From: Acidobacteriota bacterium
Lineage (GTDB): Bacteria; Acidobacteriota; Blastocatellia; Pyrinomonadales; Pyrinomonadaceae
Assembly: GCA_020200135.1 (NCBI GenBank)
Contig: JAIVJI010000009.1
Coordinates: 1,642 to 65,641, forward strand
Direction: 5' to 3'
DNA length: 64,000 bases
Of this stretch, positions 2,172 through 61,822 are shown piece after piece. The notes under the pieces were generated by a model that worked only from the letters and a program-made list of their open reading frames with translations, made no database searches and was not told the DNA's origin. Positions within the stretch are counted from its first letter, which is position 1. Each line of letters begins with the position of its first letter. A program made the position numbers and the translations under genes.

Positions 2172-2232
2172 GGAAGGATGAAGGATGAAGGAGGAAAGCC
2201 CGGCTGCCGAGAGACGAGCTTTCCTCCTTCAC
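2172..2232. repeat. Period-7 palindromic element, family D (partial right arm)
   Basis: GGAAGGATGAAGGATGAAGGAGGAAAGC-N18-GCTTTCCTCCTTCAC. Fills the gap between the bacilliredoxin stop (2241) and the recG ATG (2168). Confidence 0.8.
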
Positions 2233-2240
2233 TTTTTCGC

Positions 2241-2681
2241 TTACGCGGTGGCCGCGCCGGCCGGGGCGCAGAAGCGGTCGAAGGCTTGCGTCAGCTCCTG
2301 GGCGATCTGCTCGGCGAACCTGTTCTCGATCTGGTGGCGTTCGAGCATGAAGACGAGCCGGCCGTCTTTGAAGAGGCCGATCTGGGGCGAGGAGGGCGGG
2401 TAGGGCGCGAAGTGCTCGCGCGCCTTGGCCGTCGCCTCGATGTCCGCGCCGGCGAAGACCGTGATGGTGCGGTCGGGCCTCGCCTCGTTCTGGAGTGCCA
2501 TCGCGATACCGGGGCGCGCCTTGCCGGCCGCGCAGCCGCAGACCGAGTTGACGACGACGAGCAGCGTGCCCTTCGCCTCGCCTATCGCCTGCTCGACCTG
2601 CTCGGGCGTCCGCGTCTCCTCGACGCCGATGCGCGTCAAGTCCTCGCGCATGGGCTTGATGAGAATTTCTGAGTACGGCAT
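2241..2681 (-). CDS. BrxA/BrxB-family bacilliredoxin (DUF1094, YphP/YqiW-like)
   Basis: 146 aa. VVVNSVCGCAAG carries the CGC redox motif, and the length and layout match B. subtilis YphP. AAGGAG Shine-Dalgarno upstream. Confidence 0.8.
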   Translation of the reverse strand: MPYSEILIKPMREDLTRIGVEETRTPEQVEQAIGEAKGTLLVVVNSVCGCAAGKARPGIAMALQNEARPDRTITVFAGADIEATAKAREHFAPYPPSSPQIGLFKDGRLVFMLERHQIENRFAEQIAQELTQAFDRFCAPAGAATA

Positions 2682-2798
2682 GTTTCGTTTCTCCTTGCTG
2701 TAAAGACTATGTCCTGTCCGTCAATAAATTCGGGTGACTTCGCGAAGTTAATTTAACACAGAGCGCGCGGTGGCGCGGAGACGGCCGAAGTCTCGCGT

Positions 2799-3320
2799 TC
2801 AGTCCTCGGCGTGTGCCCCGCGCGCGATGCTGATTCGGCGCGGGTCTTCGCCGTCGCCTTCGATCGAGACGCGCCAGACCGTGTCGGGGAGCCGGTAGCG
2901 CCCCATGCGCTCGGCCCACTCGATGACGATGACCGCGCGCTCGTCCGAGAGCAGCTCCTCCAGCTCGACGGCGTGCGCCGCTCCGTGGCCTTCGGCGAGG
3001 CGGTAGAGGTCGAGGTGGTAGAGCACGAGGCGGCCCTCCGCGTGGCGGTTGACGAGCGTGAACGAGGGGCTTGAGACTTCGGCCGGGTCGAGCCCGAGCC
3101 CGGCGGCGAGCCCCTTCGTGAAGACGGTCTTGCCCGCGCCGAGCGTGCCGCTCAGCAGCAGAATCTCGCCGCCGCGCAGGCGCTCGCCCACGCGCCGCCC
3201 AGCCTCGAAAGTCTCCCCCGCGGCGCTCGAAGTCCAGACGCCCGTCGGCACCGGCGCGACCATCTCGTTCGACTCATCCGTCCGGGGCGCGTTCGTCTCT
3301 TCCGGCGTGGCGGCGTTCAA
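2799..3320 (-). CDS. tsaE: tRNA t6A37 biosynthesis ATPase TsaE
   Basis: P-loop GTLGAGKT plus SPSFTLVNRH and LYHLDLYRL motifs. The TTG start overlaps the nnr stop. Start is uncertain (alternative ATG at 3263). Confidence 0.8.
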   Translation of the reverse strand: MNAATPEETNAPRTDESNEMVAPVPTGVWTSSAAGETFEAGRRVGERLRGGEILLLSGTLGAGKTVFTKGLAAGLGLDPAEVSSPSFTLVNRHAEGRLVLYHLDLYRLAEGHGAAHAVELEELLSDERAVIVIEWAERMGRYRLPDTVWRVSIEGDGEDPRRISIARGAHAED

Positions 3321-5002
3321 GGCATCTCTCCTTCCGGGTCGAGCGCGCGCACGGCGGCGCCCAGATACTTCCTCACGTCGGACGCGACCATCGTCCTCAT
3401 CCCCAGCTGGCGCGCGGCGAAATCGCCCGCGAGCCCCGAGACGTAGACGGCCGCGACCGACGCCGCCAGCGCGTCCCTACCCCCCCCGGCGAACTCCTGC
3501 GCGAGAAAGCCCGTGATGACGCCCGTGAGCGTGTCGCCCGAGCCGGCCGTGCCGAGGCCGGCGTTGCCGGTCGGGTTGACGAAGACGCGCCCGTCCGGCG
3601 CGGCGATGAGCGCGCGCGTGCCCTTGAGGACGACGTAGAGTCCGTGCGCGGCGGCGAACCCCGCGACGACATGCGTGCGCTCTTTGAGCGCCGCAGAATC
3701 CGACGCGCCGAGCAGACGCAGCATCTCGCCCGCGTGCGGCGTCAGGACGACGGGCGCCTCGGGCGTGCCCTTCAACTCGGCCGGCCACGGGGCGAGCGCG
3801 TTGAGGCCGTCGGCGTCGACGACGACGGGAGTCGTGCGGCGTTCGACCGCTTCGCGCACGAAGCGGCGCGTCGAGTGCGAGTCGTGCGTGAGACCGGGGC
3901 CGACGGCGACGACGGTCGCGCGCTCGGTCAGTCGCATTAACTGAGCCGAAGCGTCGGCGCTGATGCTTCCCGCGTCGGTTTCATTCAGCGCGGCCGTCAT
4001 CACCTCGGGCATCAGGCGCGCGGCCGCCGCCGGCACGGCCGACTCCGGCGCGGCCAGCGTGACCAGACCCGCCCCCGCGGACATCGCCGCGCCCGCGCAG
4101 AGCACGGCCGCGCCCGTCATCCCCCGCGAGCCGGCGACGACCAGCGCGTGCCCGTGCGTGTTCTTGTATGAGTCCGGCGCGTACCGCGTCGCTTCGAGCC
4201 ACGCGCGCGCGTCGGACGCCTCGGCGAGAAAGAGTTTGGACTGGGCGGCCTCGACGAGCGCGGGCGGCGAGCCGATGTCGGCGACGACGAGCCGTCCCCC
4301 CATGTGCGATGCGGGCGGGAGCACGTTCGCGGGCTTCGGCGCGGTGTAGGTGACGGTCAGGTCCGCGCGGACGGCCGGCCCCGTCGGCGCGGCCGAGTCC
4401 GCGTTCAGACCCGAGGGGAGGTCGAGCGAGACGAAGAGCGGCGCCGCGTGTCCCGCGTGGTTACGCGCGCCGCGCAGCAGTCCGAGGTGCGCGACGACCT
4501 TGGCGAAGACGCCTTCGAGCGGTCGCGTGAGCCCCGTCCCGAAGAGCGCGTCCACGATCACGTCGTAGCCGTGGCGCGCGCTCGCCAGAGCCTCCCACGC
4601 GGCCACGTCCGCACACTCCGCGAAGGAGAGCGGCGGCGGCCTGTGGTCGGAGCCCGCGTCAAAGCCCGCCAGCCTGCGGACGATATCGAAGTTGACGCGC
4701 GCGTCTCCCTTCGACTCCTCTGTGCGCCCGAAGAGGACGACATCCACGCGCGCGCCGGCCGTCAAGAGTGCGCGGGCCAGCGCCGCGCCGTCGCCGCCGT
4801 TGTTGCCGCGCCCGCAGAGGATTTGGAAGGTCTTTCCGCGGAGGTCGTGTGAGAAGTGCGCAGCGATTTCGCGCGCCGAGGCGTCGGCGGCCGCCTGCAT
4901 CAGGAGAAGGGAGGGGACGGCGAACCGCTCGGTCGTCAGGCGGTCTACCTCGCGCATCTCGGCTGCCGTCAGAATCTTTCTCACGAGCCGGGATGATAGC
5001 AC
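3317..5002 (-). CDS. nnr: Bifunctional NAD(P)H-hydrate repair enzyme Nnr (epimerase/dehydratase)
   Basis: 561 aa. N-terminal YjeF_N part (CGRGNNGGDG) and C-terminal carbohydrate-kinase-like part (GTAGSGDTLTG). GTG start; alternative GTG at 4984. Confidence 0.85.
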   Translation of the reverse strand: MLSSRLVRKILTAAEMREVDRLTTERFAVPSLLLMQAAADASAREIAAHFSHDLRGKTFQILCGRGNNGGDGAALARALLTAGARVDVVLFGRTEESKGDARVNFDIVRRLAGFDAGSDHRPPPLSFAECADVAAWEALASARHGYDVIVDALFGTGLTRPLEGVFAKVVAHLGLLRGARNHAGHAAPLFVSLDLPSGLNADSAAPTGPAVRADLTVTYTAPKPANVLPPASHMGGRLVVADIGSPPALVEAAQSKLFLAEASDARAWLEATRYAPDSYKNTHGHALVVAGSRGMTGAAVLCAGAAMSAGAGLVTLAAPESAVPAAAARLMPEVMTAALNETDAGSISADASAQLMRLTERATVVAVGPGLTHDSHSTRRFVREAVERRTTPVVVDADGLNALAPWPAELKGTPEAPVVLTPHAGEMLRLLGASDSAALKERTHVVAGFAAAHGLYVVLKGTRALIAAPDGRVFVNPTGNAGLGTAGSGDTLTGVITGFLAQEFAGGGRDALAASVAAVYVSGLAGDFAARQLGMRTMVASDVRKYLGAAVRALDPEGEMP

Positions 5003-7007: not shown

Positions 7008-7072
7008 TCGCTTTGCTCTCGGGCGCGCCGTGTGCGCGCGCCGGGCCGCGTAGCCTATGAAATTAAAGGGTT

Positions 7073-11083: not shown

Positions 11084-11158
11084 GATGAACGAGGAACGCC
11101 GGACGAAGAACTGAAGACGGCCGGTGTTCAGTTCTTCGCTCAGCGTTCCTCGTCCATC
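11084..11158. repeat. Period-7 palindromic element (family H, GANGAAC units) in the leader of the activator gene
   Basis: GATGAAC GAGGAAC GCCGGAC GAAGAAC TGAAGAC ... TTCAGTTCTTCG ... GCGTTCCTCGTCCATC. Outer 16-bp stem and inner 12-bp stem. Confidence 0.8.
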
Positions 11159-13704: not shown

Positions 13705-14853
13705 TCAGTTCGAGACGGAGAGGAAGATGTCCTGCGTCCCGCCGCAGCCGGTGGGCGGCGTCACGCGCACGGTGAAGTTGCCGCGGTTGGCCTGACCCGT
13801 CCCGGCGGTGATCTTGATGGACATGGCCGTCACCTCGACGGTCAGGTGCGCGTTCGCCGTCGGGTGCTCGGCGGCGCTGATGGTGGCGCCCAGGGGCGCG
13901 TTGGTGAGCGTGGCCGTGACGTAGGTGGAGCGGTTGATGCCCGCGTTGTGGATGGGGATGCGGTTGGTCGTGCTGCTCGTCGGCGACAGGCTCATGGAGC
14001 ACTGCGCCGACCCGCCCGTGGTCGTCGTGCCGCCGGTCGTCCCGCCGGTCGTCCCGCCCGTCGTGCCGCCGGTCGTCCCGCCGGTCGTCCCGCCGACTGT
14101 GCCGCCGACTGTGCCGCCGGTCGTCCCGCCGGTCGTGCCGCCGGTCGTCCCGCCCGTCGTGCCGCCGGTCGTGCCGCCGGTCGTGCCGCCGGTCGTGCCG
14201 CCGGTCGTCCCGCCGGTGGTCGTGCCGCCCGTCGACGTGCCGCCCGCGCCGCCGGGGCCGAGCGAGCCGGAGTCGCCGGCGTTCGCGGCGTAGTTGCCGG
14301 CGGCGAGCGTGATCGGCTCGCGGTCGAGCGAGACCTCGCCGGCGGCGGTGATGCCGACGACGGCCGCGTGCCCGCGCTCGTTGGTGAAGTTGATGCGGTA
14401 CGACTCGCCGCCGCTGGTGCGGCCGCGCCAGTTGAAGGCGACGGTCACCGGCGTCCCCGCGCTGGGCGTCACGGTCGTCGTCGTGCCGGCCGCGTTCGTC
14501 ACCGCGACGTTGGTCAGGACGACGCCGTCGGGGAAGGTGAGCGTGTTGTCGGAGGGCATGCCGTTGTAGTCGTGGTCGAGGAAGGCCACGTACTGCGTGG
14601 ACGAGTTGAGCGTGACGGCGCCGTCGCCGCCGCCGTCGGCGCCGTGGCGCCTGACCGAGTCGATGCGCGTCTTCTCGGTGTAGGCGGCGAACGAGCGCGC
14701 CGCGTTGGTCAGCGTCATCTGGTCGCGCGCCTCCGCGATCTGCATCACCGCGAAGCTCATCACGATGACGACGACGACGAGCACGATGCCTATCTCGGTC
14801 ATCGTGAACCCCGCCTCGCGGCTCCTCGCTCTCGTGCTCACTGGCAAGCTCAT
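13705..14853 (-). CDS. FimT/GspH-like minor pilin with (GGTT)n linker and an extra C-terminal domain
   Basis: Start set to ATG 14853, preceded by a GAGGAGG Shine-Dalgarno (alternative ATG at 14877). REAG/FTMTEIGIVLVVVVIV prepilin motif. About 19 GGT(T/V) tetrapeptide repeats, then a two-Cys C-terminal domain. Confidence 0.7.
   Translation of the reverse strand: MSLPVSTRARSREAGFTMTEIGIVLVVVVIVMSFAVMQIAEARDQMTLTNAARSFAAYTEKTRIDSVRRHGADGGGDGAVTLNSSTQYVAFLDHDYNGMPSDNTLTFPDGVVLTNVAVTNAAGTTTTVTPSAGTPVTVAFNWRGRTSGGESYRINFTNERGHAAVVGITAAGEVSLDREPITLAAGNYAANAGDSGSLGPGGAGGTSTGGTTTGGTTGGTTGGTTGGTTGGTTGGTTGGTTGGTTGGTVGGTVGGTTGGTTGGTTGGTTGGTTGGTTTTGGSAQCSMSLSPTSSTTNRIPIHNAGINRSTYVTATLTNAPLGATISAAEHPTANAHLTVEVTAMSIKITAGTGQANRGNFTVRVTPPTGCGGTQDIFLSVSN
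14012..14239. repeat. 12-bp tandem repeat (~19 units) encoding (Gly-Gly-Thr-Thr)n
   Basis: ccgccggtcgtc-type units. The antisense ORF 13925-14293 reads (PPVV)n and the sense frame reads (GGTT)n. Confidence 0.9.
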
Positions 14854-15568: not shown

Positions 15569-15677
15569 GTAGTCAGTAGACAGTAGTCAGTAGAAAAAAG
15601 GCGGCGCGCTCGGCTGATGACCGGGACGCGCCGCTTTCGTTCTTCTACTGACTACTGACTACTGACTACTGTCTACT
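15569..15677. repeat. Period-7 palindromic element, family A (GTAGNCA / CTACTGA)
   Basis: GTAGTCA GTAGACA GTAGTCA GTAG-A6-GGCGGCGCG-N18-CGCGCCGC-T-rich-(CTACTGA)x3 CTACTGT CTACT. Lies directly downstream of the dacB-like stop. Confidence 0.85.
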
Positions 15678-15686
15678 CCCTTTCCC

Positions 15687-17093
15687 CTACTGATTCGGCG
15701 TCGCCGGCTCGTACTCTTCGAGGGCGGAGGAGCGCGCGCTGTCGATCTCGGATGAGGAGAGGCGGATGGCCATCGTCTGCGGCGCGTAGGTGAAGGGCGC
15801 GGGGCCGCCGCGCTGGCTCTGGAGGTCTGCGACGAGCGCGTCCTGCCACTGGCGGAAGCGCACGACGCTGCCGCGCTGGTCGAAGATGACGAAGAGCAGC
15901 GTGTCGCCCTTCGCCGTGCGGAGCTGGCCGACGAGCGCGCTCACGCCGCCGTCGGTGCGCGGCAGCGTCCCCGTCTTGGCGATGACGCTGCCGCGCCCGG
16001 GGCTGTCGGCGTAGCGCTTCTGGAGCGTGCCGGGGTCGACGCCCGCGACCGGCAGGATGTCGGCGGCCCTCAAGCCGTGCTCGCGCAGCTCTTCGAGCAG
16101 CGCGCGGTAGACCTTCATCATCTGGCGCGGCGTCATGCGGTTGACCCCGAGGCCGCTCGCGGTCGCGATGCGGAACTCGCCCGGCTTCAGGCCCACGTCG
16201 GTCGTGAGCGTGCGCGTCAGGCCGGCCGCGCCGCCGAGCTGGTCGCCGAGACGCTCGGCCATGAAGTTGTTCGAGTAGCAGAGCAGGACCTTGAGCACGT
16301 CGGAGAGCACCGGCGAGTAGTGCGTCGAGACGGCGCGCGCGCCGGCCGGCACGGAGGCGACGTAGACCGCGCCCATTACGGCGACGCTCGGCGTCGAGCG
16401 CAACGCCTCGGCGTCGCGCAGCGCCACGCGCGACTCGTACCAGGCTCGCGTCGCCGCCGCCGGGCGGCGCTCGGCGTCGAGCGTGTCGTAGAGCCGCTCG
16501 CCCGAGCGCTGCGACGAGGGGCTGAAATTCATCGTGAAGCGCGGGGCGACGACGAGGTCGCCGGTGACGGTCTTGATGCCGAGCTGGTTCAGCTCGCGCG
16601 CGACCGCGACGGCGTGCTCGTCGTGGAACGAGGGGTCGCGCCCCGAGACGACGAGGTCGCCCGCGACCGTGCCGGTCGCCTTGTCGAAGGTGCCCGTGAC
16701 CCAGAAGGCGGTCGCGAAGCGGTGCTTCGCGCCGAAGGTGCGCAGCGCCGCGAGCGCCGTGACGAGCTTGATGGCGGAGGCGGGGTTGTAAGCCCGGTCG
16801 GACGCCTCCTCGCGGACGACCTCGCCCGAGAGCCTTTCGACGAGCACGCCCTGGTGGACGAACGTCGGCCGCTGCTCTTCCGTCGCGAAGGGAAGTCCGA
16901 CGACGTTCTCGACGGGCGGGAGCGGCGGCACGCTCATCGGCGGCACGAACGGCGGCTGCACCGCGCCGCCCGGCGACACCTGCGCGCGGGCGCCGGCGGC
17001 CGGGCCGAGCAGGATGACGAGAGCCAGTATTAAACGTAACGTCTTCAACCCACTAACTCCTTCCAAAACCCCCGGGTACGAAGGGCGCGCCAT
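15687..17093 (-). CDS. dacB: D-alanyl-D-alanine carboxypeptidase/endopeptidase, PBP4 (peptidase S13) family
   Basis: SxxK (ASAIK), SxN (YSNN) and KTG (AKTGT) motifs. Start moved to ATG 17093 (M46 of the tracked ORF), ahead of the hydrophobic signal LKTLRLILALVILLGPAAGARA. Confidence 0.8.
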   Translation of the reverse strand: MARPSYPGVLEGVSGLKTLRLILALVILLGPAAGARAQVSPGGAVQPPFVPPMSVPPLPPVENVVGLPFATEEQRPTFVHQGVLVERLSGEVVREEASDRAYNPASAIKLVTALAALRTFGAKHRFATAFWVTGTFDKATGTVAGDLVVSGRDPSFHDEHAVAVARELNQLGIKTVTGDLVVAPRFTMNFSPSSQRSGERLYDTLDAERRPAAATRAWYESRVALRDAEALRSTPSVAVMGAVYVASVPAGARAVSTHYSPVLSDVLKVLLCYSNNFMAERLGDQLGGAAGLTRTLTTDVGLKPGEFRIATASGLGVNRMTPRQMMKVYRALLEELREHGLRAADILPVAGVDPGTLQKRYADSPGRGSVIAKTGTLPRTDGGVSALVGQLRTAKGDTLLFVIFDQRGSVVRFRQWQDALVADLQSQRGGPAPFTYAPQTMAIRLSSSEIDSARSSALEEYEPATPNQ

Positions 17094-17248
17094 GATAGCA
17101 CGGGCGCGCCGCTTTACGGGGGCGTAACGATTTCGCGGGAAGAGCCGAGGGGAGGGCAAACACTTTGATGCCGACCGGCATCGTACGCGATGTATGCACC
17201 GCCCCGCGCTATAACAGGCGCAATGCAACCGCCGTTCCCGAAGGGGAG

Positions 17249-17354
17249 TTTTCAGCTTTCAGTTTTTAGTTTTCAGTCCTCGGGCGAGTCGCCGCCGCCG
17301 CGCGTGAACGCAGGACGGAGGCGACGCTGAAAACTTAAAACTAAAACCGAAAAC
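17249..17354. repeat. Period-7 palindromic element, family F (TTTTCAG / CTGAAAA)
   Basis: TTTTCAG CTTTCAG TTTTTAG TTTTCAG ... CTGAAAAC TTAAAAC TAAAACC GAAAAC. Sits in the divergent gap between the dacB-like gene and ogg. Confidence 0.85.
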
Positions 17355-19728: not shown

Positions 19729-20198
19729 AGCAGAGCATCTACCTCGAGACCTCGGTCGTCGGCGCGTACCTCGACAACGGCGAGCCGTTCCGACGCGACC
19801 TGACCATCCGCTGGTGGGAGCACGAGATGACCGAGTACCGCCCCGTCGTCTCGCCGCTCGTCGTCCGCGAGCTGGAGCGCGTGCCGGAGCCGCACCGCAC
19901 GGGCTACCTCAAACTGGTCGCGCCGCTGGAATCGGTCGAGCTGACGGACGAGGTCGCCATCCTCGCCGAAGGCTACGTCACGCGCGGCATCTTCCACCGC
20001 AAGTACATCGGCGACGCCGTCCACGTCGCGCTCGCCTCGTTCCATAAGATAGACTACCTGGTGACCTGGAACTTCGGGCACCTGGCGAACGTGCGGCGGC
20101 AGGCGCGCATACGCCTCTTCAACGCCGCCGCCGGCTTCTTCGTCCCGCAGATCGTGACGCCCGAGTTTCTGGTTTCGGAGATGACAGAGAAGGGGTGA
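19725..20198 (+). CDS. PIN-like nuclease domain protein (putative toxin)
   Basis: 157 aa. IYLETSVV, GDAVHVALA and YLVTWNFGHL resemble a PIN-like family. ATGA overlap with the upstream stop. Confidence 0.55.
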   Translation: MKQSIYLETSVVGAYLDNGEPFRRDLTIRWWEHEMTEYRPVVSPLVVRELERVPEPHRTGYLKLVAPLESVELTDEVAILAEGYVTRGIFHRKYIGDAVHVALASFHKIDYLVTWNFGHLANVRRQARIRLFNAAAGFFVPQIVTPEFLVSEMTEKG

Positions 20199-20276
20199 AT
20201 GGTGAATAGTAAACGGTGAGTGGTTGACGCCCGCGCCCATTTACCATTTACTATTCACCATTCACTATTTACCATC
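20194..20276. repeat. Period-7 palindromic element, family E (GGTGAAT / ATTCACC)
   Basis: GGTGAAT GGTGAAT AGTAAAC GGTGAGT GG...CCATTTA CCATTTA CTATTCA CCATTCA CTATTTA CCATC. The first unit carries the TGA stop of the PIN-like gene, and the last unit abuts ATG 20277. Confidence 0.85.
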
Positions 20277-21307: not shown

Positions 21308-21317
21308 GGGGGTAAGC

Positions 21318-21524
21318 ATGACCCAGGAATTTACGGCGACGGTCTGGCAGGAAGGCGACTGGTTCATCGCACTGTGCAGGGAAGTGGAGGTCGCCAGCCA
21401 GGGGCTGACGGAGGATGAGGCGTTAGCCAATCTCCGCGAAGCGCTGGAGCTTCACTTCGAGCCGCCGCACGCGACCATCCTGCCGAGCATACGTAAGATC
21501 GAGGTCGAGCTGGATGCCGCTTAG
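21318..21524 (+). CDS. hicB: HicB-family antitoxin (UPF0150)
   Basis: 68 aa; FTATVWQEGDWFIALCREVEVASQGLTEDEALANLREALELHF pattern. Confidence 0.7.
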   Translation: MTQEFTATVWQEGDWFIALCREVEVASQGLTEDEALANLREALELHFEPPHATILPSIRKIEVELDAA

Positions 21525-21735
21525 GCCGCTGCCGTACCGCGAATTAAAGCGGAAACTCGAAGCCGCTGGCTTCAAAGAGGTGAGCAGTAAAGGCAGCCAC
21601 GTCAAATTCGCCAGGGTGACACAGCTCGGGACTTACACCGCCGTCGTCCCGCATCATCGTGAAGTGCCCGTCGGCACCATACGCAGCATTATCAAGCAGG
21701 CCGGAATCAGCCCCGACGAATTTGAGAGACTGTAA
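21514..21735 (+). CDS. hicA: HicA mRNA interferase toxin
   Basis: 73 aa with YRELKRKLEAAGF...KGSHVKF...VPHH...GTIRSIIKQAGI. Overlaps the hicB-like gene by 11 nt. Confidence 0.8.
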   Translation: MPLRPLPYRELKRKLEAAGFKEVSSKGSHVKFARVTQLGTYTAVVPHHREVPVGTIRSIIKQAGISPDEFERL

Positions 21736-21750
21736 ACTGTCGCAAACCCG

Positions 21751-22338: not shown

Positions 22339-23696
22339 CTTACCGCCAGTTGCTCGCGGGCAACGCGGACTTCCGGCGGCTGTGGGCGGGGCAGGTCGTC
22401 TCGGAAATAGGCGACTGGCTGAACAACATCGCCGTGCTCGCGCTCGCCATCCAGCTCGCGGGCGCCGGGAGCGTGGGGCTCGCGGTCGCGACCTACGCCA
22501 TCGCGCGCCACCTCCCGCTCTTCATCTTCGGCCCCGTCGCGGGCGTCGTCGTCGACCGCGTGAGCCGGCGGCGGGTGATGATAGCGGCGGACGTGGCGCG
22601 CGCGGTGCTCGCGCTCGGCTTCCTGGTGGCGAACCGGCTGGGCTCGCTCGCGGCCATCTACGCGGTCGGCGCGTCGCTCTTCTCAGTCTCGGCCTTCTTC
22701 AACGCGGCCAAGCGCGCCTCCGTCCCGAACCTCGTCGGCGGGACGGAGGCGCTGCTCGCCGCCAACTCGCTCTCGGCCTCGACGACGGCGGCGACCATCG
22801 CGGTCGGCTCGGCGCTCGGCGGCGTCATCGCCACCGCGCTCGGGCGCGACACGGTCTTCGTCCTCAACGCGCTCACCTTCCTCGCCTCCGCCGAGATGAT
22901 TCGGAGAATCAGACGGCCCGTGAGCAGAGGGCGCGAAGCGCCGGGCGTCGAGCTGGCGGTGCCGGGCGACGGAGTCGCGGCGCAAACGTCAACGCCGCCC
23001 CCGTCATCAAGTCTTGGCGTTCAACGCTCGCCGCTCGCCGCATACTTCACTGACTTCCGCGAGGGGCTGCGGTACGTGCGGCGCGACCGCGTGCTGGCGG
23101 CGGTCTTCGTGGTGGCGGCCGGGTGGGGGCTGGGGAACGGCGCGGCGCGCGCACTCTACAGCATCTTCGGCGCGAGGCTGGGCGAGCAGGCGGCCGCCGG
23201 GTGGGGCGCCGCGTTCGGGCCCGTGGCGGAGCGGCCGACCGACTTCGGCATCTCGGTGCTCTTCGTCGCGATGGGCTTAGGCGGCGTGCTCGGCGCGCCG
23301 CTGGCCCGCCGCTTCAACAGCGGCGCGGTCGAAGGGCTCGGCTCGCGCATGGGGCGCTCGCTCGTGCTCGACGGCGCGGGGCTGCTCGTCTTCAGCCTGA
23401 CGCCGTCGCTCTTCGGCGCGGCGGCCGTGCTCGTCGCGCGCGAGATGAACTTCGCCATCTGGTGGACGGCGCAGCAGACGCTCATGATGCGCCGCACCGA
23501 CGACCGCGTGGCCGGCCGCGTCTTCGCCTCGTACGAGACTTTGACGACGCTGATGATGGTCGGCTCGATGCTCGTCTCGGGGGCGGCGGCCGACCGCGTC
23601 GGCATCCGGCCCGTCGCGGCCTGCGCCGCGTGTGTGGTCATCCTGTCGGGGCTTTCGTGGTTCGTCCTGCGCCGCCGGGGCGGAGAAGTGAGATGA
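22335..23696 (+). CDS. MFS transporter
   Basis: About 12 predicted TM segments. Begins LTYRQLLAGNADFRRLWAGQVVSEIGDW at TTG 22335 (L133 of the tracked ORF), overlapping the upstream stop. Confidence 0.7.
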   Translation: MTYRQLLAGNADFRRLWAGQVVSEIGDWLNNIAVLALAIQLAGAGSVGLAVATYAIARHLPLFIFGPVAGVVVDRVSRRRVMIAADVARAVLALGFLVANRLGSLAAIYAVGASLFSVSAFFNAAKRASVPNLVGGTEALLAANSLSASTTAATIAVGSALGGVIATALGRDTVFVLNALTFLASAEMIRRIRRPVSRGREAPGVELAVPGDGVAAQTSTPPPSSSLGVQRSPLAAYFTDFREGLRYVRRDRVLAAVFVVAAGWGLGNGAARALYSIFGARLGEQAAAGWGAAFGPVAERPTDFGISVLFVAMGLGGVLGAPLARRFNSGAVEGLGSRMGRSLVLDGAGLLVFSLTPSLFGAAAVLVAREMNFAIWWTAQQTLMMRRTDDRVAGRVFASYETLTTLMMVGSMLVSGAAADRVGIRPVAACAACVVILSGLSWFVLRRRGGEVR

Positions 23697-27062: not shown

Positions 27063-27160
27063 GGGCCGTGAACCGTAAACCGTGACAAGATGCGGCGGCG
27101 GCCGTCTCCCGTCGCGGCTCAAGGTTTACGGTTTACGGCCTCAACGGTTTACGATTCACG
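27063..27160. repeat. Period-7 palindromic element, family C (CCGTAAA / TTTACGG)
   Basis: GGGCCGTGAA CCGTAAA CCGTGAC AAG ... CAAGGTTTAC GGTTTAC GG...GGTTTAC GATTCAC G. Fills the whole gap between the ATPase pseudogene stop and the ackA ATG. Confidence 0.85.
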
Positions 27161-28409: not shown

Positions 28410-28570
28410 GGAGTAGTAGGCAGCAGGCAGATGGCATTAGGCAGTTAAGACGGGAAGAGACTTGAATGAAAAGTGGGCGGCGAGTCGTGAAACTCGCCGC
28501 CCACGTTTGCCCGACCGCTTTCCTTTTTCTTCTAACTGCCTACTGCCATCTGCCTACTGCTTTTCTACTG
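28410..28570. repeat. Period-7 palindromic element, family B (GCAGNNG / CTGCC)
   Basis: GTAGTAG GCAGCAG GCAGATG GCATTAG GCAGTTA ... central hairpin GTGGGCGGCGAGT-cgtgaa-ACTCGCCGCCCAC ... TCTAACTGCCTACTGCCATCTGCCTACTGCTTTTCTACTG. Fills the convergent gap, and its right end contains the TAG stop of the Calx-beta gene. Confidence 0.85.
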
Positions 28571-33874: not shown

Positions 33875-34084
33875 TTTAGACCTTCTCTATCATTACGGAG
33901 GTAAAACAGGGACTAAAAAGGCGATGGGGAGCGCGGGTCGGTCCGACGTGCCGCGGATAAAAGTTCTGCCGATGCCGCACCAGGTGGGCGGGAACAACCG
34001 CCGGCAACTTTAAAGCCGGCAGGGTCTTAAGTCAACCGGAAGACTGTGGCGGAAGCCCGACCGTGAGGGAGGGCGAAAGACAAT

Positions 34085-34162
34085 GGGTGAAGGCGGGGGG
34101 ATGAAGGATGAAGTGAACGCCTTTCAGCCGTCCTTTCATCCTTCGTCCCCCCGCCTTCACCC
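34085..34162. repeat. Period-7 palindromic element, family D (GGATGAA / TTCATCC)
   Basis: GGGTGAAGGCGGGGGGATGAAGGATGAAGTGAACG-loop-CGTCCTTTCATCCTTCGTCCCCCCGCCTTCACCC. Ends 6 nt before the aminotransferase stop. Confidence 0.85.
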
Positions 34163-35523: not shown

Positions 35524-35720
35524 GACGAATTCTCCTCCAGTCGGAAAGCGAGGGCGGGTACGAACATTAACGCGAGGTGAAGGGCCGACGAATGTCTCGG
35601 AGGAGGGCGCGGCTAGTCCGCGAAGAGGTTCGCGCGGGAGTCGAGCGGCCGGAAGTGTGGGGCGGTGTAGTCTCGCATCGGCGTTAAAATCATACCCAGA
35701 TTGAACCGCGACGGCAAGAG

Positions 35721-35837
35721 GGTTAGTAGGCGGCAGGCAGATGGCAGCAGGCAGTTGAAGCGCCGCCGTCAAAGACCCTGACTTAATCTCTCGACTTCTG
35801 AAACGCGGGGCGGCTGCTTACTGCCATCTGCCTGCCG
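35721..35837. repeat. Period-7 palindromic element, family B, second copy
   Basis: The left arm GGTTAGTAGGCGGCAGGCAGATGGCAGCAGGCAGTTGAAG matches the arm at 28411-28450 at 32 of 40 positions. Right arm is CTGCTTACTGCCATCTGCCTGCCG. Confidence 0.85.
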
Positions 35838-37624: not shown

Positions 37625-37705
37625 CCGTGAACCGTAAACCGTAAACCGTAACGAGATAAAAATCCGTTCTTTCTTGTCACGGTTTACGGTTTACGGTTCA
37701 CGCCC
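37625..37705. repeat. Period-7 palindromic element, family C, second copy (inverted relative to 27063)
   Basis: CCGTGAA CCGTAAA CCGTAAA CCGTAAC GAG...CTTGTCAC GGTTTAC GGTTTAC GGTTCAC GCCC. Confidence 0.85.
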
Positions 37706-42896: not shown

Positions 42897-42914
42897 GGAG
42901 AGGGAAGGAGGGAA

Positions 42915-43004
42915 TTCACATGGGTGGGCAGGATGAACAGGATGAGAGCTTTAGAATTTTAAATCTTCAACTCTCGTCCTGTTCACCCTGCCCACCCATG
43001 TGAA
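42915..43004. repeat. 34-bp near-perfect inverted repeat with AT-rich 22-nt loop (family G)
   Basis: TTCACATGGGTGGGCAGGATGAACAGGATGAGAG-loop-CTCTCGTCCTGTTCACCCTGCCCACCCATGTGAA; 32 of 34 positions are complementary. Confidence 0.9.
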
Positions 43005-50299: not shown

Positions 50300-51250
50300 T
50301 TGCAACACGGTCTCTTCAACTGCTTCTCGCGCGACGAGGGCGGCGACGCCATTACCTTTTACGAGCTGATGCACGGCGTCACCTTCGCGCGCGCCGTCCG
50401 CGAGCTGGCGCGCGAGCTGGGGCTCGACGGGCGCAAGGGGCGCCGGCCGTCTCTCGCCTCCGTCTCGGCGCCCGACCCGGCGGAGACGGACGCGGAGAGC
50501 CCGGAGAGCCTTGCGCCGCTCGACCCGGCGCAGACCGCCGAGGCCTGCGCGCGCTTCCTCGAAATCTGCCGCGCCGAAGACCAGCTCGAAGGCGTGGCCT
50601 ACCTCGCGCGGCGCGGCATCGACGCGGCGACCGCCCGCCGCGCGGGGCTGACCTACTTCCCGCGCCGCGCCTACCGCCGCGTGATGCGGCGGATGCTCGA
50701 AGGCTTTTCGCAGGAGACGCTCCGGCGCGCCGGACTCTTCAACCGCAGGGAGCACCTGACCTTTTACCACCACCGGCTGCTCTTTCCGTTTTTCGTCGGC
50801 GGCCGTCCCGTCTACCTCCAGGCGCGCACGACCGCCGCCGGCGTCGAGCCGCGCTGGCACAACATGCGCGGCCCCGTCCCCGCGCTCTACAACGCCGACG
50901 CGCTCCGGACGCTCCCGAGCGGCTCCATCCTCTACCTCGTCGAGGGCTTCACGGACACGCTGACGCTCCTCGCCAACGGCTTCGACGCGGTCGGGCTCGT
51001 CGGCGCGGGCGGGCTCAAGGAGGAGTGGCTGGCACCGCTGGGGCGCTTCCGCGTCGTCGCCGCGCTCGACCCGGACGCCGCCGGCCGCCGCGCCGCCGCT
51101 CGCTACCGCGAGCTGTTCGCCGCCCGCGGCCTCCGCCTCGCCGCCGTCGAGCTGCCTTCGGACGTTAACGACTTCTTCCGCCGTCTCCCCGTCGCCGGCC
51201 TCGAACTCGACGTGCTGACGGAAAAGGCTTTGGAAGGGGTAGACCGCTAG
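50300..51250 (+). CDS. Primase-like Toprim protein with a degenerate, start-less CHC2 zinc finger (possible pseudogene)
   Basis: In-frame TAA at 50252, then LLRHDGGRRPRLSIDLQHGLFNCFSRDEGGDAITF (compare the CPFH..PS..CFGCG..GD layout; the cysteines are lost). Toprim motifs LVEGFTDTLTL and ALDPDAAGRRAA. Confidence 0.55.
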   Translation: MQHGLFNCFSRDEGGDAITFYELMHGVTFARAVRELARELGLDGRKGRRPSLASVSAPDPAETDAESPESLAPLDPAQTAEACARFLEICRAEDQLEGVAYLARRGIDAATARRAGLTYFPRRAYRRVMRRMLEGFSQETLRRAGLFNRREHLTFYHHRLLFPFFVGGRPVYLQARTTAAGVEPRWHNMRGPVPALYNADALRTLPSGSILYLVEGFTDTLTLLANGFDAVGLVGAGGLKEEWLAPLGRFRVVAALDPDAAGRRAAARYRELFAARGLRLAAVELPSDVNDFFRRLPVAGLELDVLTEKALEGVDR

Positions 51251-51354
51251 ACGGTAGCGGGAAGCTCTGCCCGGCGGGCGCTGACAGTGACGACTGAGGC
51301 ACGGCGGGCGCAGGTTTTTTCTACCGGCTACTGACTACTGGCTACCGTCTACTC
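51239..51354. repeat. Period-7 palindromic element, family A variant
   Basis: GTAGACC GCTAGAC GGTAGCG ... TTTTTT CTACCGG CTACTGA CTACTGG CTACCGT CTACTC. The left arm carries the TAG stop of the primase-like gene. Confidence 0.8.
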
Positions 51355-52672: not shown

Positions 52673-52765
52673 GAGTAGACGGTAGTCAGTAGAAAACTAT
52701 GGCGGCGCGCCCGGCCCGAAGGCTAAGACGCGCCGCCTGTTTTTTCTACTGACTACTGTCTACTC
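52673..52765. repeat. Period-7 palindromic element, family A
   Basis: GAGTAGACGGTAGTCAGTAGAAAACTATGGCGGCGCG-N19-CGCGCCGCCTGTTTTTTCTACTGACTACTGTCTACTC. The 37-nt arms have ~4 mismatches, and the GC core is the same as at 15569-15677. Confidence 0.9.
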
Positions 52766-59465: not shown

Positions 59466-60722
59466 ACTTGCCCCTGACCGGGGCGAGCTCGTCGGCGGCG
59501 ACGAGGGCGGAGTGCGTGACGGCGGCGACGCCGTTGCCGGGGAAGACCGTGTCGCCGACCATGAGCAGGTTGGGGACGTGCGTCCTGTGGGTCGGGGCGT
59601 TCGCGCCGAAGGCTCCGAGCGACTGGCCGACGCCGCCGACCATGCCGAGCCTTCTGCGTGTGTGCTCGTAAAAGGTGCGCGGCGTCGCCGTCTCGAAGAC
59701 CTCCGCGCCCGCGCCCAGCTCCGGCAGCGCCGCGTGGACGCGGGCCCAGAGGGCTTCGAGCGAGCGCGCGTCCTGCTCCTCGTGCTCCGACTCGTCGGAG
59801 TGAAAAGAGAACCACTGTTCGGCGTCTGTGAAGGCGCTGACGGTGGCGGAGCGACGACCCGCGGGGGCGCGCGCGTCCCAGGCGGGCGCGGCGCCGAGCA
59901 TGAAGAGTGAGCTTTCGGCGTCGAACGACTCGCCCCCGCGTGGGTCGGAGAGCGCGAGGACCTTGTCCGAGGGAAGTCGCCCCGCCGCATCTTCCTCCAG
60001 GCTCACGAAAATCTGATAAGCGCCCCAGCCCTTCAACTGCTTGAGACGCGAGCGCAGCCCGGCGGGCGTGTGGTCGGCTCCGACGAGCTTGCCGTAGGTG
60101 TCCCAGACCGTGAGGTTGCTGACGACGGCGCGCGTGGTCCCGACCGTCTCGCCGCTCAAAAGCGTGACGCCGGCCGCGCGCCCGCTCTCGTCGAAGGCGA
60201 GTTTGAGGGCGGTCGTGTCGAGGCGCACCGTCCCGCCGCTCTTCTTTATCGACTCGGCGAGCGCGTCCGCCAGCGCCTGTCCGCCGCCGCCGAGCGCGTA
60301 CATGCCGCGCAGCGGCTCGGTGAGCGCGACCGCCGCGTAGAGGTACGCGCACGAGTCGGAAGGCACCTGCGCGTAGAGCTGAAGCTGCGCGTCGATGAAA
60401 TGCCGGAAGCGCGCGGACGTCCCGGCGAGGTGTGTCGCGGCCGCGTCTCCGCGCGCCGCGAGGATGCGCGGGGCGAGGCGCGGCGCGGCTGCCGCGAGCT
60501 TGAGGATTTGGAGCCTTGAGGCTTCGGCGAGCGCGGGCGCGCGGCGCGCGGCACGCCGGAGCGCGTCGGCGACCTCCGCGGCCTCGCGGTAAAACCTGAC
60601 GGCCGCCTCGGCGCATTCGGGGAAGGACTCGCGCAAGGACGCGTGGAACTCCCCGGCCGGGCCGCCCACGCGCACGTCGAGCCCTTCGGGCAGACGCACT
60701 GTGTAGGCGGGCGCCCCGGAAA
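59464..60722 (-). pseudogene. Phytoene-desaturase-family (CrtI/CrtD-like) FAD oxidoreductase lacking its N-terminal FAD-binding segment
   Basis: Homologous sequence starts at ..DFSGAPAYTVRLPEG immediately after the CPBP stop (60725). No GxGxxG segment and no plausible start codon. The C-terminus reads NLLMVGDTVFPGNGV. Confidence 0.55.
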
Positions 60723-60724
60723 AG

Positions 60725-61654
60725 TCAGCCGCCGAAGAGTTTTGTGACGAGCTCGACGAGCAGCCCCGGCGCGGGCGCGGCCTCGTCGGGCGCGAACCGC
60801 TTGATGTACGGGTCGAGCACCATGAAGACGGCCTGGATGGAGTTGAAGACCAGGTGGACGATGAAGCAGGGCAGGAGCTGGCCGGTGCGCGCGCGGATGA
60901 GCGTGAGGACGGTGCTGAGGAGGAGGATGGTGGCGATGACGCCGTAGCTCGGCCAGTACTGCGGGACGTGGATGACCGCGAAGATGAGCACGACGAAGAC
61001 GACCGCGCCGGCCGACCCCGCCAGGCGTCTGAGCGCGGAGTAGAGGACGCCCCGGAAGACCACCTCCTCGACGAGCGGCGCGGTGACCGACGCGACGAAG
61101 GCGACGGCGAGCATCGCCGCGCGCGAGCTGCGGACGAGCTGTTCGAGCGCGTTGTCGGTGGGGCCGGCGAGCTTGGCAATCCCGATGCCGACCAGCAGGA
61201 GCAGGACGGCGAGGCCGGCGCTGCGCCAGAAGGTGAAGCCCGCGCGCCACTCCCACCCGAGCGTGCGGAAGAAGGGGTGCTTGCCCGCGCGCGTCACGAT
61301 GAGCCACGCCAGCGCGAGCGTGAGCAGGTGCGCCGGGAGTATCGAGAGCACCTGGACGAGGAGCGCGCCCGGGTCTTTGGTCGCGAACTCGCCGAACGCG
61401 AGGAGCCCGACGCCGCGGTAGACCGCGTAGGGGATGATGAAGACCGCGAACGTGAGCAGCATCAGGACGAAGCTCACGAGCAGCAGCCCCAGCGCCTCCC
61501 AGAACCCCCAGGGCGGGCTGTCCGGGTCGGGCACGGGGCGCAGCTCCGGCGCCGCCGTCCGCTCGCGCGGCGCCGTCTCGTCATCCCGCTCGCGCGGCGC
61601 GTGCGTCAACTCTTCCGTGCTGTCGGTTGTAAACTGAGTCGGAGGGGTGCCCAC
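60725..61654 (-). CDS. CPBP-family intramembrane glutamic endopeptidase (CAAX protease/Abi)
   Basis: APLVEEVVFRGVLY, FAVIHV and HLVFNS motifs; multi-TM; GTG start. Confidence 0.8.
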   Translation of the reverse strand: MGTPPTQFTTDSTEELTHAPRERDDETAPRERTAAPELRPVPDPDSPPWGFWEALGLLLVSFVLMLLTFAVFIIPYAVYRGVGLLAFGEFATKDPGALLVQVLSILPAHLLTLALAWLIVTRAGKHPFFRTLGWEWRAGFTFWRSAGLAVLLLLVGIGIAKLAGPTDNALEQLVRSSRAAMLAVAFVASVTAPLVEEVVFRGVLYSALRRLAGSAGAVVFVVLIFAVIHVPQYWPSYGVIATILLLSTVLTLIRARTGQLLPCFIVHLVFNSIQAVFMVLDPYIKRFAPDEAAPAPGLLVELVTKLFGG

Positions 61655-61701
61655 GCACGCGAGTGTAAGAGATGCGGCGCACGAGGGTCAAACGGAAAGA
61701 A

Positions 61702-61822
61702 GAAGTAGACAGTAGACAGTAGACAGTAGCGCTCCGCGTCGCGGCCGCTGACGCTGAACCGCTGACGTTTCACCTCCGAAGGTTTTTCTACTGGCTACTG
61801 ACTACTGTCTTCTGTCTACTTC
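61702..61822. repeat. Period-7 palindromic element, family A
   Basis: GAAGTAGACA GTAGACA GTAGACA GTAGC ... TTTTT CTACTGG CTACTGA CTACTGT CTTCTGT CTACTTC. The right arm encodes the last residues (EVDRRQ) and the TAG stop of plsC. Confidence 0.85.

Follow-up and report, generated by a model that had tools for sequence, protein, structure and literature searches.

What kind of element occupies so many of the spacers between ordinary genes in a high-GC acidobacterial chromosome? The question is raised by a 64,000-nt stretch of contig JAIVJI010000009.1 (metagenome-assembled genome GCA_020200135.1), from an uncultured soil Acidobacteriota bacterium of the family Pyrinomonadaceae, which was analyzed over its whole length and is referred to below as the window. 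The first-pass annotation of this DNA pointed to 14 loci at which the spacer is a long imperfect inverted repeat with arms made of tandem 7-nt units. We find that these palindromes belong to repeat families that have recognizable arms and, often, recognizable centers and occur at unrelated loci, rather than being independent local arrays; that the occupants of gene junctions turn over fast; that elements nest within one another and lie in frame inside genes; and that arms change by single units. The reading that we favor, with moderate confidence, is that the elements are a lineage-specific superfamily of short (60–160 bp) palindromic dispersed repeats with heptanucleotide-microsatellite arms, which originates and spreads at the DNA level.

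Palindromes with heptanucleotide arms in the window

The GC content of the window stays within 64–73% along its whole length (~70% overall), and its genes are those of an ordinary chromosome, among them a RecG-like helicase, a sigma-54 activator, MurJ, PEP-CTERM proteins, an S13 peptidase, Ogg, acetate kinase (AckA), an aminotransferase, M16 peptidases, and a DnaG-like primase. The GAF-SpoIIE phosphatase and the sigma-54 activator have exact matches in assembly GCA_046261915.1, the Rad52-like protein is matched exactly on a contig labeled as an Acidobacteria metagenome-assembled genome (MAG), and AckA homologs with 77–93% identity carry the labels Pyrinomonadaceae or Acidobacteriota.

Inverted arms are present at each of the 14 loci as they had been described, and all 14 form strong hairpins: z-scores of DNA-hairpin folding range from −3.4 to −11.6, with at most 1 of 200 shuffled sequences folding as well, and RNA minimum free energies, computed for each locus with 10–35 nt of flank on each side, from −38 to −92 kcal/mol. 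The arms consist of tandem 7-nt units at 13 of the 14 loci; at 42915–43004, the period is 9 (CAGGATGAA/CAGGATGAG), as the first-pass annotation half suspected. Tandem Repeats Finder detected period-7 arrays in both arms of most loci, and long self-similar runs in the window number nine at period 7, none or one at each of the periods 4, 5, 6, 8, 9, 10, and 11, and three at period 12; the arrays are tandem repeats in the usual sense, with head-to-tail 7-nt units that lie between genes and are commoner than those of other periods. An inverted-repeat search recovered arms of 24–45 nt with 81–96% complementarity. With a detector that combines the two properties (arm of at least 18 nt, at least 80% complementary, period-7 autocorrelation of at least 0.6), nine inverted repeats were found in the window, compared to six in total over 20 dinucleotide shuffles of the same sequence (0.3 per shuffle), so the predicted excess of period-7 inverted arrays over shuffled sequence is present within the 64 kb. 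With 23–67% GC, the arms are AT-enriched relative to the window. At 2172 and 51239, the elements are lopsided, with one arm far better developed than the other.

The elements do not, as had been proposed, fill most of the longer intergenic gaps: on an approximate gene map of the window, they are found in 14 of ~43 gaps of at least 60 nt, about one third, and the remaining gaps contain ordinary GC-rich hairpins or nothing. Where the occupied gap is no longer than 160 nt, the element spans it almost from stop codon to start codon. The density is about one element per 3.6–4.6 kb. The diversity of heptamer families noted in the first pass holds, except that the family given as GCAGCAG/GCAGATG is better written GTAGGCA, a relative of GTAGTCA/GTAGACA; the sameness of the architecture under differing heptamers is borne out by more than 100 consensus units in related genomes and metagenome contigs. 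A search of Rfam, one of the checks proposed for these elements, produced no match at the gathering threshold; in the E-value mode, it returned, on both strands, only sub-threshold hairpin models of eukaryotic and viral microRNA precursors.

That the elements are assembly or sequencing artifacts of short-read MAGs in low-complexity DNA is extremely improbable. In favor of it, GCA_046261915.1 has contig breaks in this region, and one comparison contig, L001, fails to match the window at its ends (positions 1–148 and 4859–4886) (here and below, L-numbers are labels of comparison contigs, which include loci of related genomes and metagenome stretches). However, the elements are identical in the two independent assemblies, equivalents are present in dozens of independent MAGs and metagenomes, and reading frames are kept where elements lie inside genes. 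Equivalents were also detected on megabase contigs and on one complete chromosome.

Repeat families, shared centers, and taxonomic spread

Elements at unrelated loci share both arms and centers. Within the window, the elements at 15569 and 52673 have common arms and a common GC-rich core, and those at 61702 and 51239 have common arms and a common center; the irregular arm GCAGGCAGATGGCAG occurs at 28410 and 35721 as well as at other junctions in L003 and L005, and the GANGAAC/GAACGNT family of the element at 11084 recurs at other junctions in L003, L005, L009, and L208. An exact 17-mer across the boundary of arm and center (CAGTAGTCAGTAGAAAA) was found in more than 120 metagenome stretches among the matches listed, and the contigs in this list mostly have a GC content of 62–73%. 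Two conserved types of centers were identified among the metagenome copies. The type A center consists of an A-tract, a GGCGGCGCG...CGCGCCGCC hairpin, and a T-tract. The type B center is asymmetric, GTAGAAAA-ACCTTCG...TCGAATCGT...GTCAGCGTCA.CG.CCGC...GCGGAGCG-CTACTG, and can be aligned over at least 20 copies; the center of the element at 61702 matches the conserved GTAGAAAA-ACCTTCG...GTCAGCGTCAGCGGCCGCGACGCGGAGCG-CTACTG of these copies. Two of the contigs, L104 and L134, each contain two copies a few kilobases apart.

Altogether, the high-GC metagenome loci yielded 91 period-7 inverted repeats in 330 kb. Across all loci, 436 arrays represent 128 distinct consensus units (the sample being biased toward the seeded family), and almost all of these arrays are paired with an inverted one no more than 160 nt away. 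Neighboring elements belong to the same family in 16% of adjacent pairs, compared to 7.6% of random pairs, which is only suggestive of local clustering.

The taxonomic spread was assessed with a panel of ~80 AckA loci, one per species, each with 10-kb flanks, to which the same detector was applied. Period-7 inverted arrays are confined to the closer Pyrinomonadaceae/Blastocatellia relatives, with AckA ~70% or more identical, and none were found in ~60 loci from Terriglobia, Bacteroidota, Ignavibacteria, Elusimicrobiota, and others. The genomes nearest to the window contain 4–7 elements per 20 kb, one of these genomes having only 53% GC, and there are MAGs labeled Pyrinomonadaceae without elements at the AckA locus (L018, L019, L021, and L039). 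Given the 53% GC carrier and the non-carrier loci in the panel, high GC is neither necessary nor sufficient, and the elements are a trait of a subclade. In addition, GTAGTCA arrays were observed in metagenome contigs of 44–52% GC (L099, L170, L195, L197, and L199), several with an inverted partner and a small loop, and in L102, L168, L172, L183, L184, and L200 such arrays are combined with those of further heptamers (e.g., TTGGACT). It is possible that the phenomenon is not limited to Pyrinomonadaceae.

Turnover, empty sites, nesting, and copies inside genes

Synteny around ackA is kept in ten related contigs, so that the junctions could be compared site by site. Orthologous junctions hold three to five different families, or none (Table 1), and the presence/absence polymorphism for which the first-pass annotation had called takes the form of filled, empty, replaced, and nested states. 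In the S13/Ogg gap, L006, L008, and L010 hold families other than the TTTTCAG family of the window. The element at 35721 is orthologous to those of L005, L208, and L210, and another family or palindrome occupies this site in L003, L006, and L209. In seven genomes (L006, L008, L010, L011, L055, L209, and L211), an element separates the SLT and MFS genes; the one in L010 lies in frame within the SLT C-terminus, and the native overlapping stop and start codons are kept.

Copies inside genes are also found in the central loop of the MFS transporter (Table 1). The in-frame heptamer elements of L006, L010, L011, and L055 correspond to 22920–23052 in the window, where the MFS gene has only a 2.4-copy CGCTCGC array at 23025–23041, which may be a relic of such an element. 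Nesting is exemplified by the period-9 family of the element at 42915: at 6257–6350 of L005, it is represented by a simple palindrome, and at 7044–7175 of L006, the outer palindrome is the same but a GATGAAT heptamer element occupies the center. Composite arms were observed in L009, L011, and L055.

Two further places in this region differ between the genomes. The large surface-protein gene at 28565–33841 (minus strand), between ackA and the aminotransferase gene and with elements on both flanks, is a replacement hotspot: its product is a 1758-aa Calx-beta protein in the window and a protein of 1119–2020 aa in the relatives, some without a Calx-beta match, whereas in L006 it is 397 aa long. 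The gap between the DUF3881-like and SLT genes (21308–21750) is 443 nt long in the window as against ~45–65 nt in L003, L005, L006, and L208–L211; the ~380 extra nucleotides of the window contain no heptamer array, and L010 and L011 have heptamer elements at this junction.

How the elements arise and change

The arms have a marked polarity. Of the 63 elements cataloged in the window and its relatives, 57 have a purine-rich 5′ arm (66% purine on average), and G exceeds C in 53 as against 8; the element at 17249 is among the only six with a pyrimidine-rich 5′ arm. Because a palindrome presents the same arms on both strands, this polarity is intrinsic and does not reflect a replication or transcription skew. 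In elements between co-oriented genes or inside genes, the 44 transition-type arm mismatches divide evenly, 22 being of the kind that would give G·U on the sense strand and 22 of the kind that would give it on the antisense one; this lack of strand-specific bias argues against maintenance at the RNA level. Of the seven positions of a unit, six are nearly fixed and one is variable. In GTAGNCA, the conserved positions reach 91–100% and position 5 is T 58, A 26, C 13, although these figures are partly circular because arrays were assigned to the family by the same six positions. The variable position is not mirrored between the two arms of an element, so the arms are not kept perfectly paired. 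Arms also differ by whole units: between the L008 and L209 elements, the left arms are identical and the right arms differ by one 7-nt unit. The sole difference between L006 and L007 in 20.5 kb is the variable position of a heptamer. Taken together, the polarity, the lack of G·U bias, and the single-unit arm changes point to origin and spread at the DNA level with slippage, not to a conserved structured RNA. Under this interpretation, the elements would spread by copying between sites, through either some enzyme or microhomology and template-switch events; replication slippage would lengthen and shorten the arms; the elements would not be maintained as structured RNAs; and they would affect the cell through what they carry and what they form.

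The main rival to spread as dispersed repeats is selection in place for functional RNA hairpins at gene boundaries, which could serve as terminators, 3′-end stabilizers against exonucleases, RNase III processing sites, or translational insulators. Only the long stem would then matter, so that the sequence would drift while the arms co-evolve. The M16/M16, PIN/72-aa, and ackA/Calx-beta spacers are occupied in nearly every relative, by different sequences, much as this scenario would have it; it is also compatible with the very stable stems, with the GC cores followed by T-tracts in several elements, and with a polarity that leaves a pyrimidine-rich, weakly hybridizing segment after the stem in both directions. 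We nevertheless consider it unlikely. The transcribed strand shows no excess of G·U pairs, and the variable position is not mirrored; some copies lie inside coding sequences, where a terminator would be harmful, and another, in a divergent gap, is located upstream of a promoter; in close relatives, junctions are empty or the genes overlap; and the identical families and centers at unrelated loci demand copying, not local drift.

The two arms can be unequally conserved. In the CCGTGAA allele of the PIN/72-aa spacer, the right arms of L208 and L211 are identical at 47 of 48 positions, whereas the left arms are identical at 15 of 23, with an A-to-G drift. For comparison, the window and L003, L005, and L008, relatives at about the distance that separates L208 from L211, show ~78% identity in third-codon positions of ackA, and against this background the start-proximal right arm looks constrained. 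Solo arrays of the 3′ type are found upstream of ackA in L009 and L006. Start codons that follow 3′ arms are not preceded by a Shine-Dalgarno sequence, whereas such a sequence is present at other genes of these contigs, an example being the GGAGGAG of the aminotransferase gene. Selection appears to keep the pyrimidine-rich 3′ arm beside a start codon, probably as part of the promoter or leader of the downstream gene, while the 5′ arm decays. Stop codons were considered as a possible function of the arms and set aside: 5′ arms contain stops in 1.68 frames compared to 1.18 in composition-matched shuffles (3′ arms as expected), an excess that mostly follows from purine richness.

The same contrast between arms could be taken to mean that the elements are protein-binding arrays, with the heptamer as the footprint of one protein unit, on RNA (cold-shock protein, ribosomal protein S1, or a CsrA-like protein) or on DNA (IHF/HU). 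Binding on RNA has been suggested for TAACTGA repeats that precede start codons in Beggiatoaceae and cyanobacteria, and IHF/HU binding on DNA for the paired Geobacter repeats (PMC4679880; PMC2700814; bioRxiv 10.1101/2022.06.06.494920), and six near-invariant unit positions with one free, subject to the circularity noted above, the better conservation of the 3′ arm, and its position against start codons that lack a Shine-Dalgarno sequence would all accord with it. Against it, many elements are located at 3′ ends between convergent genes. With more than 100 different units, moreover, no single sequence-specific protein fits, only a reader of composition or spacing. We therefore rate this possibility as low.

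The boundaries of the elements bear on whether the elements move at all. Between arm ends and native sequence, only microhomologies of 3–8 nt, inverted or direct, were detected. In principle, each palindrome could be a purely mutational by-product made in place, that is, a heptamer grown by slippage and then inverted by template switching or fold-back synthesis, without any movement between loci. Several details look like traces of such events: the upstream stop codon lies within the first unit or arm at 20194, 51239, and 61702; at 17249, the last unit of the right arm equals the CCGAAAAC that is native to the empty site of L005; a site that reads AGGCAG when empty is bracketed in L008 by AGGTAG...CTGCCT; sharing of a family is slightly commoner between neighboring elements than in random pairs, as given above; and a published hypothesis (Mrazek 2007, as cited in PMC4692102) ties the heptamer excess to polymerase slippage. 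Local events alone, however, could not produce identical irregular arms and 50–60-nt centers at unrelated loci in many genomes, nor the nesting of families, and the microhomologies are few and only 4–8 nt long in these cases. As a complete explanation, generation in place is therefore improbable, but local slippage and fold-back may contribute to how new families start.

Several observations weigh against spread as dispersed repeats and temper our confidence in it. No clean target-site duplication was found where filled and empty sites were compared, at the S13/Ogg and SLT/MFS junctions, the flanks of which have diverged; the junction microhomologies fit generation in situ as well as copying. 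No transposase, HUH/RAYT, or other plausible mobilizing gene was detected in a Pfam scan of the ~50 open reading frames (ORFs) of the window, and in the limited sample of loci examined no inverted arrays flank a gene, so that no autonomous partner was seen. The polarity and the exact filling of spacers from stop to start could reflect selection for function, not selfish spread. The G·U test is small, with only 44 informative mismatches. Finally, the grouping of genomes by common family differs from site to site; because of this incongruence, part of the diversity may be old alleles swapped by recombination rather than new insertions, and some of the apparent turnover may be exchange of old alleles by homologous recombination.

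A more specific version of DNA-level origin is that a clade-restricted process, guided by structure or microhomology and carried out by an unrecognized enzyme, continually writes palindromes into gene boundaries, with interchangeable cores: type A would be the terminator cassette, and type B the one that lies upstream, near start codons. This is a tentative idea, to which we attach little weight. If true, the promoters, leaders, and terminators of ordinary genes would largely be supplied, and often swapped, by a mobile modular "punctuation", and the heptamer repeats of cyanobacteria, Xanthomonas, and Beggiatoa could be explained in the same way. Speculatively, the enzyme could be a Rad52/SWIM annealing protein; the gene is conserved in Pyrinomonadaceae. 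The window protein in question (430 aa, encoded at 44873–46165 on the minus strand, in an ordinary chromosomal neighborhood) contains a Rad52/Rad22 single-strand-annealing domain in residues 228–342 and is named "SWIM zinc finger family" or "Rad52/Rad22 family" in the sources. Its best 120 homologs, where labeled, belong to Pyrinomonadaceae or Acidobacteriota and are 83–95% identical. The Rad52/Rad22 family is mostly known from phages and eukaryotes, and a chromosomal bacterial case is unusual; the protein is a speculative candidate for annealing-driven rearrangements.

Possible terminators, promoters, and leaders

The first-pass annotation held that a plain Rho-independent terminator does not explain the elements. 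This is true of some elements only: those at 11084, 20194, 34085, 37625, and 42915 have no GC core or T-run, and in-frame copies also argue for the claim, but 15569, 28410, and 52673 fit a terminator, with GC stems of 9–13 bp followed by T-runs. At 15569, the arms enclose a GC hairpin (GGCGGCGCG...CGCGCCGC) between an A-tract and a T-tract, and at 28410, a 13-bp GC core hairpin (28473–28504) has a T-run on the minus-strand side. Judged by sequence, the core of these three elements is well described as a putative bidirectional terminator. The GC hairpin with A- and T-tracts of type A would thus probably provide gene ends with bidirectional intrinsic terminators. A consensus scan for promoters and terminators reported a single promoter-like site, inside the arm at 51239; with its loop limit of 8 nt, it overlooked the terminator cores, the loops of which are longer, and is therefore not decisive.

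The elements that had been assigned to 5′ leaders, where no terminator is expected, in reality lie in stop-to-start spacers of co-oriented genes, where a terminator is possible. The presence of an element in a divergent gap, at 17249, was confirmed: it stops 4 nt short of the conserved TTTTGACA-N17-TAGAAT, that is, it lies just upstream of a promoter-like TTGACA-17-TAGAAT. Near this element, at ~17050–17228 and in the counterparts L005 130–230, L006 480–570, and L209 2210–2300, a conserved block precedes the S13 peptidase gene (TTCGCGGGAAGAG.CAGGCGGGCAAACACTTTGATGC....CATCGTACGCGATGTATGCACCGCC); by the longest ORF, the block would be coding, but the gene calls of the relatives start the peptidase downstream of it, leaving it non-coding.

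The two types of centers differ in their flanks, which were counted by eye from printed sequences. Copies of type A lie 3–8 nt past a stop triplet in 7 of 10 metagenome copies and, in the window, between convergent genes. Among 27 copies of type B, 17 have CAT (ATG on the other strand) no more than ~20 nt from one fixed side, and no type A copy does. The element at 51239 follows the type B rule, with the GAF-SpoIIE gene starting 15 nt past the arm and TATAAT in between; the 3′ arm together with the flank yields CTGACT-18-TATAAT, 9 nt before the ATG at 51370. The element at 61702 breaks the rule, given that Pfam supports genes on the opposite strand: the ORF at 61826–63253 (plus strand), once considered a gene that starts past this element, was rejected in favor of opposite-strand acyltransferase and CAAX-protease genes. 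A small structured RNA embedded in the type B center was likewise dropped for the strand analyzed, RNAalifold finding no consensus structure there.

Adjacent to the element at 35721, a ~200-nt non-coding stretch upstream of the aminotransferase gene (35524–35720) is strongly conserved in L003, L005, and L006 (e.g., GGCTAGTCCGCGAAGAGGTTCGCGCGGGAGTCGAGCGGCCGGAAGTGT), ends in the GGAGGAG ribosome-binding site, and has no Rfam match; it looks like a conserved leader or a regulatory RNA.

Comparison with known repeats

Heptanucleotide repeats have been noted in bacteria since 1990, starting with the short tandemly repeated repetitive (STRR) sequences of cyanobacteria, and heptanucleotides were later recognized as the over-represented class of long microsatellites. 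In the first pass, no inverted heptamer-array element was known from a high-GC genome; two precedents refute this. In Xanthomonas campestris and X. axonopodis (~65% coding GC), GGGAATC arrays form 70–75 convergent inverted pairs per genome (Rehm et al. 2015, PMC4692102). Like the elements described here, these pairs are intergenic, high-GC, convergent arrays on opposite strands that are able to form stem-loops, with a position between genes that is conserved across species and a length and sequence that vary; they are always convergent, in the wording of that paper (the comparison draws on its text, not on a reanalysis of the Xanthomonas sequences), and this matches the polarity seen here. Convergent pairs of the same heptamer with a conserved position and a variable length are thus common to both systems. 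The Xanthomonas arrays, however, consist essentially of one G-tract unit (GGGNATC), studied as a G-quadruplex (G4) former, as opposed to more than 100 mostly non-G4 units in the present case; most units here have no run of three G residues, and only a few relatives have one (L010 5289, L015 2304). Families with shared centers, nesting, in-frame copies, and replacement of families at the same junction also set the present elements apart.

The second precedent is Geobacter metallireducens, with paired tandem hepta-, octa-, and nonanucleotide sites that were designated "putative global regulator / IHF-HU sites" (Aklujkar et al. 2009, PMC2700814). These, too, comprise 3–5 short tandem units in opposite-strand pairs at variable distance, in several classes per genome; the Geobacter heptamer MTYCTGA resembles CTACTGA of the window, and the nonamer class parallels the period-9 element at 42915. 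Unlike the present case, they come from another phylum, fall into far fewer classes, appear in supplementary figures only, and were interpreted as protein-binding sites without a test; that paper gives nothing on turnover or terminator cores (PMC2700814).

Direct TAACTGA repeats are found near start codons in Beggiatoaceae, cyanobacteria, and Bacteroidetes (PMC4679880), and heptamer repeats of this type alter reporter expression in Nostoc (bioRxiv 10.1101/2022.06.06.494920). STRR/TAACTGA arrays share with the present elements the period of 7, the intergenic location, and the position a few nucleotides from start codons without canonical ribosome-binding sites, and TAACTGA differs from CTACTGA at two positions. 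These arrays are direct, with a single inverted case in 170 Maribeggiatoa repeat sets (PMC4679880), whereas nearly all arrays here are paired. A tentative link to the polymerase footprint has been drawn for the excess of heptamers among the long microsatellites of bacteria, in work cited in PMC4692102.

Repetitive extragenic palindromic (REP) sequences and the hairpins formed by them (REPINs), with their RAYT transposases (Y1 HUH; PMC3116915, PMC3733652), resemble the elements in being short extragenic palindromes with several families per genome and inverted doublets that fold into hairpins. They reach hundreds of copies, often lie at 3′ ends with terminator or stabilizer effects, and have a GTAG head tetranucleotide that also occurs in one family here. 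Inverted, extragenic hairpin doublets in many copies are common to both. However, REP arms are not tandem microsatellites, and the REP head (GTAG or CGTC at one end of an imperfect palindrome of 20–40 nt) is not present as such: GTAG is found only in GTAGNCA families, where it recurs every 7 nt; the CCGTGAA, GGTGAAT, GGATGAA, TTTTCAG, and GAACGNT families lack it. A RAYT gene, which REPs typically flank, was not detected by Pfam among the ~50 ORFs of the window. REPINs are reported to be stable and vertically inherited, whereas the elements here are replaced at orthologous sites.

MITEs (miniature inverted-repeat transposable elements) are likewise small, non-coding, multi-copy elements with inverted ends that are tolerated in operons, and Rickettsia palindromic elements also occur occasionally in frame within genes. 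MITEs, though, have a target-site duplication, a parent insertion sequence with the same ends, and fixed terminal inverted repeats; neither of the former was seen here, and the palindromes end in microsatellite arrays that vary in length. To call them MITEs would require a target duplication or a parent element. A literature search of incomplete coverage retrieved no description of such elements in Acidobacteriota and none containing these arrays. The elements are a far more diversified form of inverted heptamer-array palindromes, a type that is known but unexplained.

The clade offers an unusually rich natural experiment, with genomes that each contain hundreds of copies, a stock of over 100 units, graded syntenic relatives, empty, filled, replaced, and nested states, and functional-looking cores. 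Comparative genomics combined with transcript-end mapping can address why the period is 7, why the purine arm is 5′, how the inverted copy is made, and whether the repeats deliver terminators and leaders. On the practical side, the elements break short-read assemblies and mislead gene callers in the abundant soil and desert Acidobacteriota; the arms contain start codons, small ORFs, and the ends of proteins.

Individual loci and minor observations

Table 1 Palindromic elements of the window and the occupants of orthologous junctions (z, folding z-score; family, heptamer unit unless stated otherwise).
Feature	Position	Strand	Setting	z
GGATGAA family	2172..2232		fills 72-nt spacer; disulphide-isomerase-like gene stop 2241 (minus), RecG-like helicase gene start 2168 (minus)	−5.8
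GANGAAC/GAACGNT family	11084..11158		11 nt upstream of sigma-54 activator start codon (11072, minus)	−7.8
GTAG(T/A)CA family, type A	15569..15677		10 nt past S13 peptidase stop (15687, minus)	−11.6
TTTTCAG family	17249..17354		divergent S13/Ogg gap	−3.9
GGTGAAT family	20194..20276		PIN-domain gene stop codon within first unit	−7.6
CCGT(G/A)AA family	27063..27160		begins directly past stop at 27062; 3′ arm abuts ackA ATG 27162	−4.9
GTAGGCA family	28410..28570		convergent genes: ackA (stop 28409), Calx-beta gene (stop 28565)	−10.6
GGATGAA/GGGTGAAGG family	34085..34162		6 nt past aminotransferase stop (34168, minus)	−9.8
GTAGGCA family, type-B-like	35721..35837		asymmetric center ending ACGCGG(G/A)GCG beside 3′ arm	−5.4
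CCGT(G/A)AA family	37625..37705		fills 100-nt spacer of two co-oriented M16 peptidase genes; no GC core	−9.2
Period-9 palindrome, CAGGATGAA/CAGGATGAG, ends CATGGGTGGG	42915..43004		related to the heptamer elements	−10.9
GTAGNC(N) family, type-B-like	51239..51354		DnaG-like gene stop within first units	−3.4
GTAG(T/A)CA family, type A	52673..52765		convergent genes; GC core as in 15569, then TGTTTTTT	−9.6
GTAGACA family, type B	61702..61822	sense on −	acyltransferase stop (61802, minus) inside arm	−7.0
Possible relic in MFS transporter gene (weak)	22920..23052	+	variable central loop	
M16/M16 spacer			CCGTRAA: window, L005; GATGART: L003/L208/L210; GTGATGA: L209; GTGCAGA: L006	
PIN/72-aa spacer			three families across genomes	
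ackA/Calx-beta spacer			five families across genomes	
Ogg/TPR spacer			empty: window, L209; three different families: L005, L208/L210, L008	
S13/Ogg divergent gap			empty: L005; elsewhere four families, in every case shortly upstream of conserved TTTTGACA-N17-TAGAAT	
SLT/MFS junction			genes overlap by 4 nt: window, L003, L005, L208, L210	
MFS central loop			in-frame elements with differing units: L006, L010, L011, L055	

Some loci have features of their own. The asymmetric element at 2172 has 3.4 units in the left arm on the plus strand, and its hairpin is confined to 2186–2231. At 20194, the 3′ arm abuts the ATG at 20277, which has no Shine-Dalgarno sequence. The element at 27063 has a 3′ arm that is longer than the 5′ arm, and TACGAT is located at −12 to −7 relative to the ackA ATG. 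The arms of the element at 34085 are 28 nt long and 96% complementary; beside it, at 34050–34080, the sequence GAAGCCCGACCGTGAGGGAGGGCG is homologous to the arms of a ~40-bp near-perfect palindrome in L209 (17510–17601), which occupies the aminotransferase/103-aa junction, has no period of 7, and represents a further, non-heptameric dispersed palindromic family. At 42897–43004 (plus strand), a strong Shine-Dalgarno-like run, AAGGAGAGGGAAGGAGGGAA, is followed by an ATG and a 28-codon ORF that spans the hairpin of the element at 42915 up to a TGA and runs antisense to the flanking genes. The elements at 2172 and 34085 open with (A)CATGGG(T/G)G, like the start of this ORF, which is probably a feature of the family rather than a gene.

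Two observations concern repeats of other kinds. At 5883/5884, the otherwise identical contig of GCA_046261915.1 is ~390 nt longer (L002 5648–6037), within a run of PEP-CTERM paralogs; this likely reflects a collapsed or expanded tandem paralog in one of the assemblies. At 14024–14217, sixteen tandem copies of a 12-nt unit, GTCGTGCCGCCG (89% matches), lie within overlapping long ORFs on both strands, neither of which has a Pfam match; the product is presumably a repetitive low-complexity protein.

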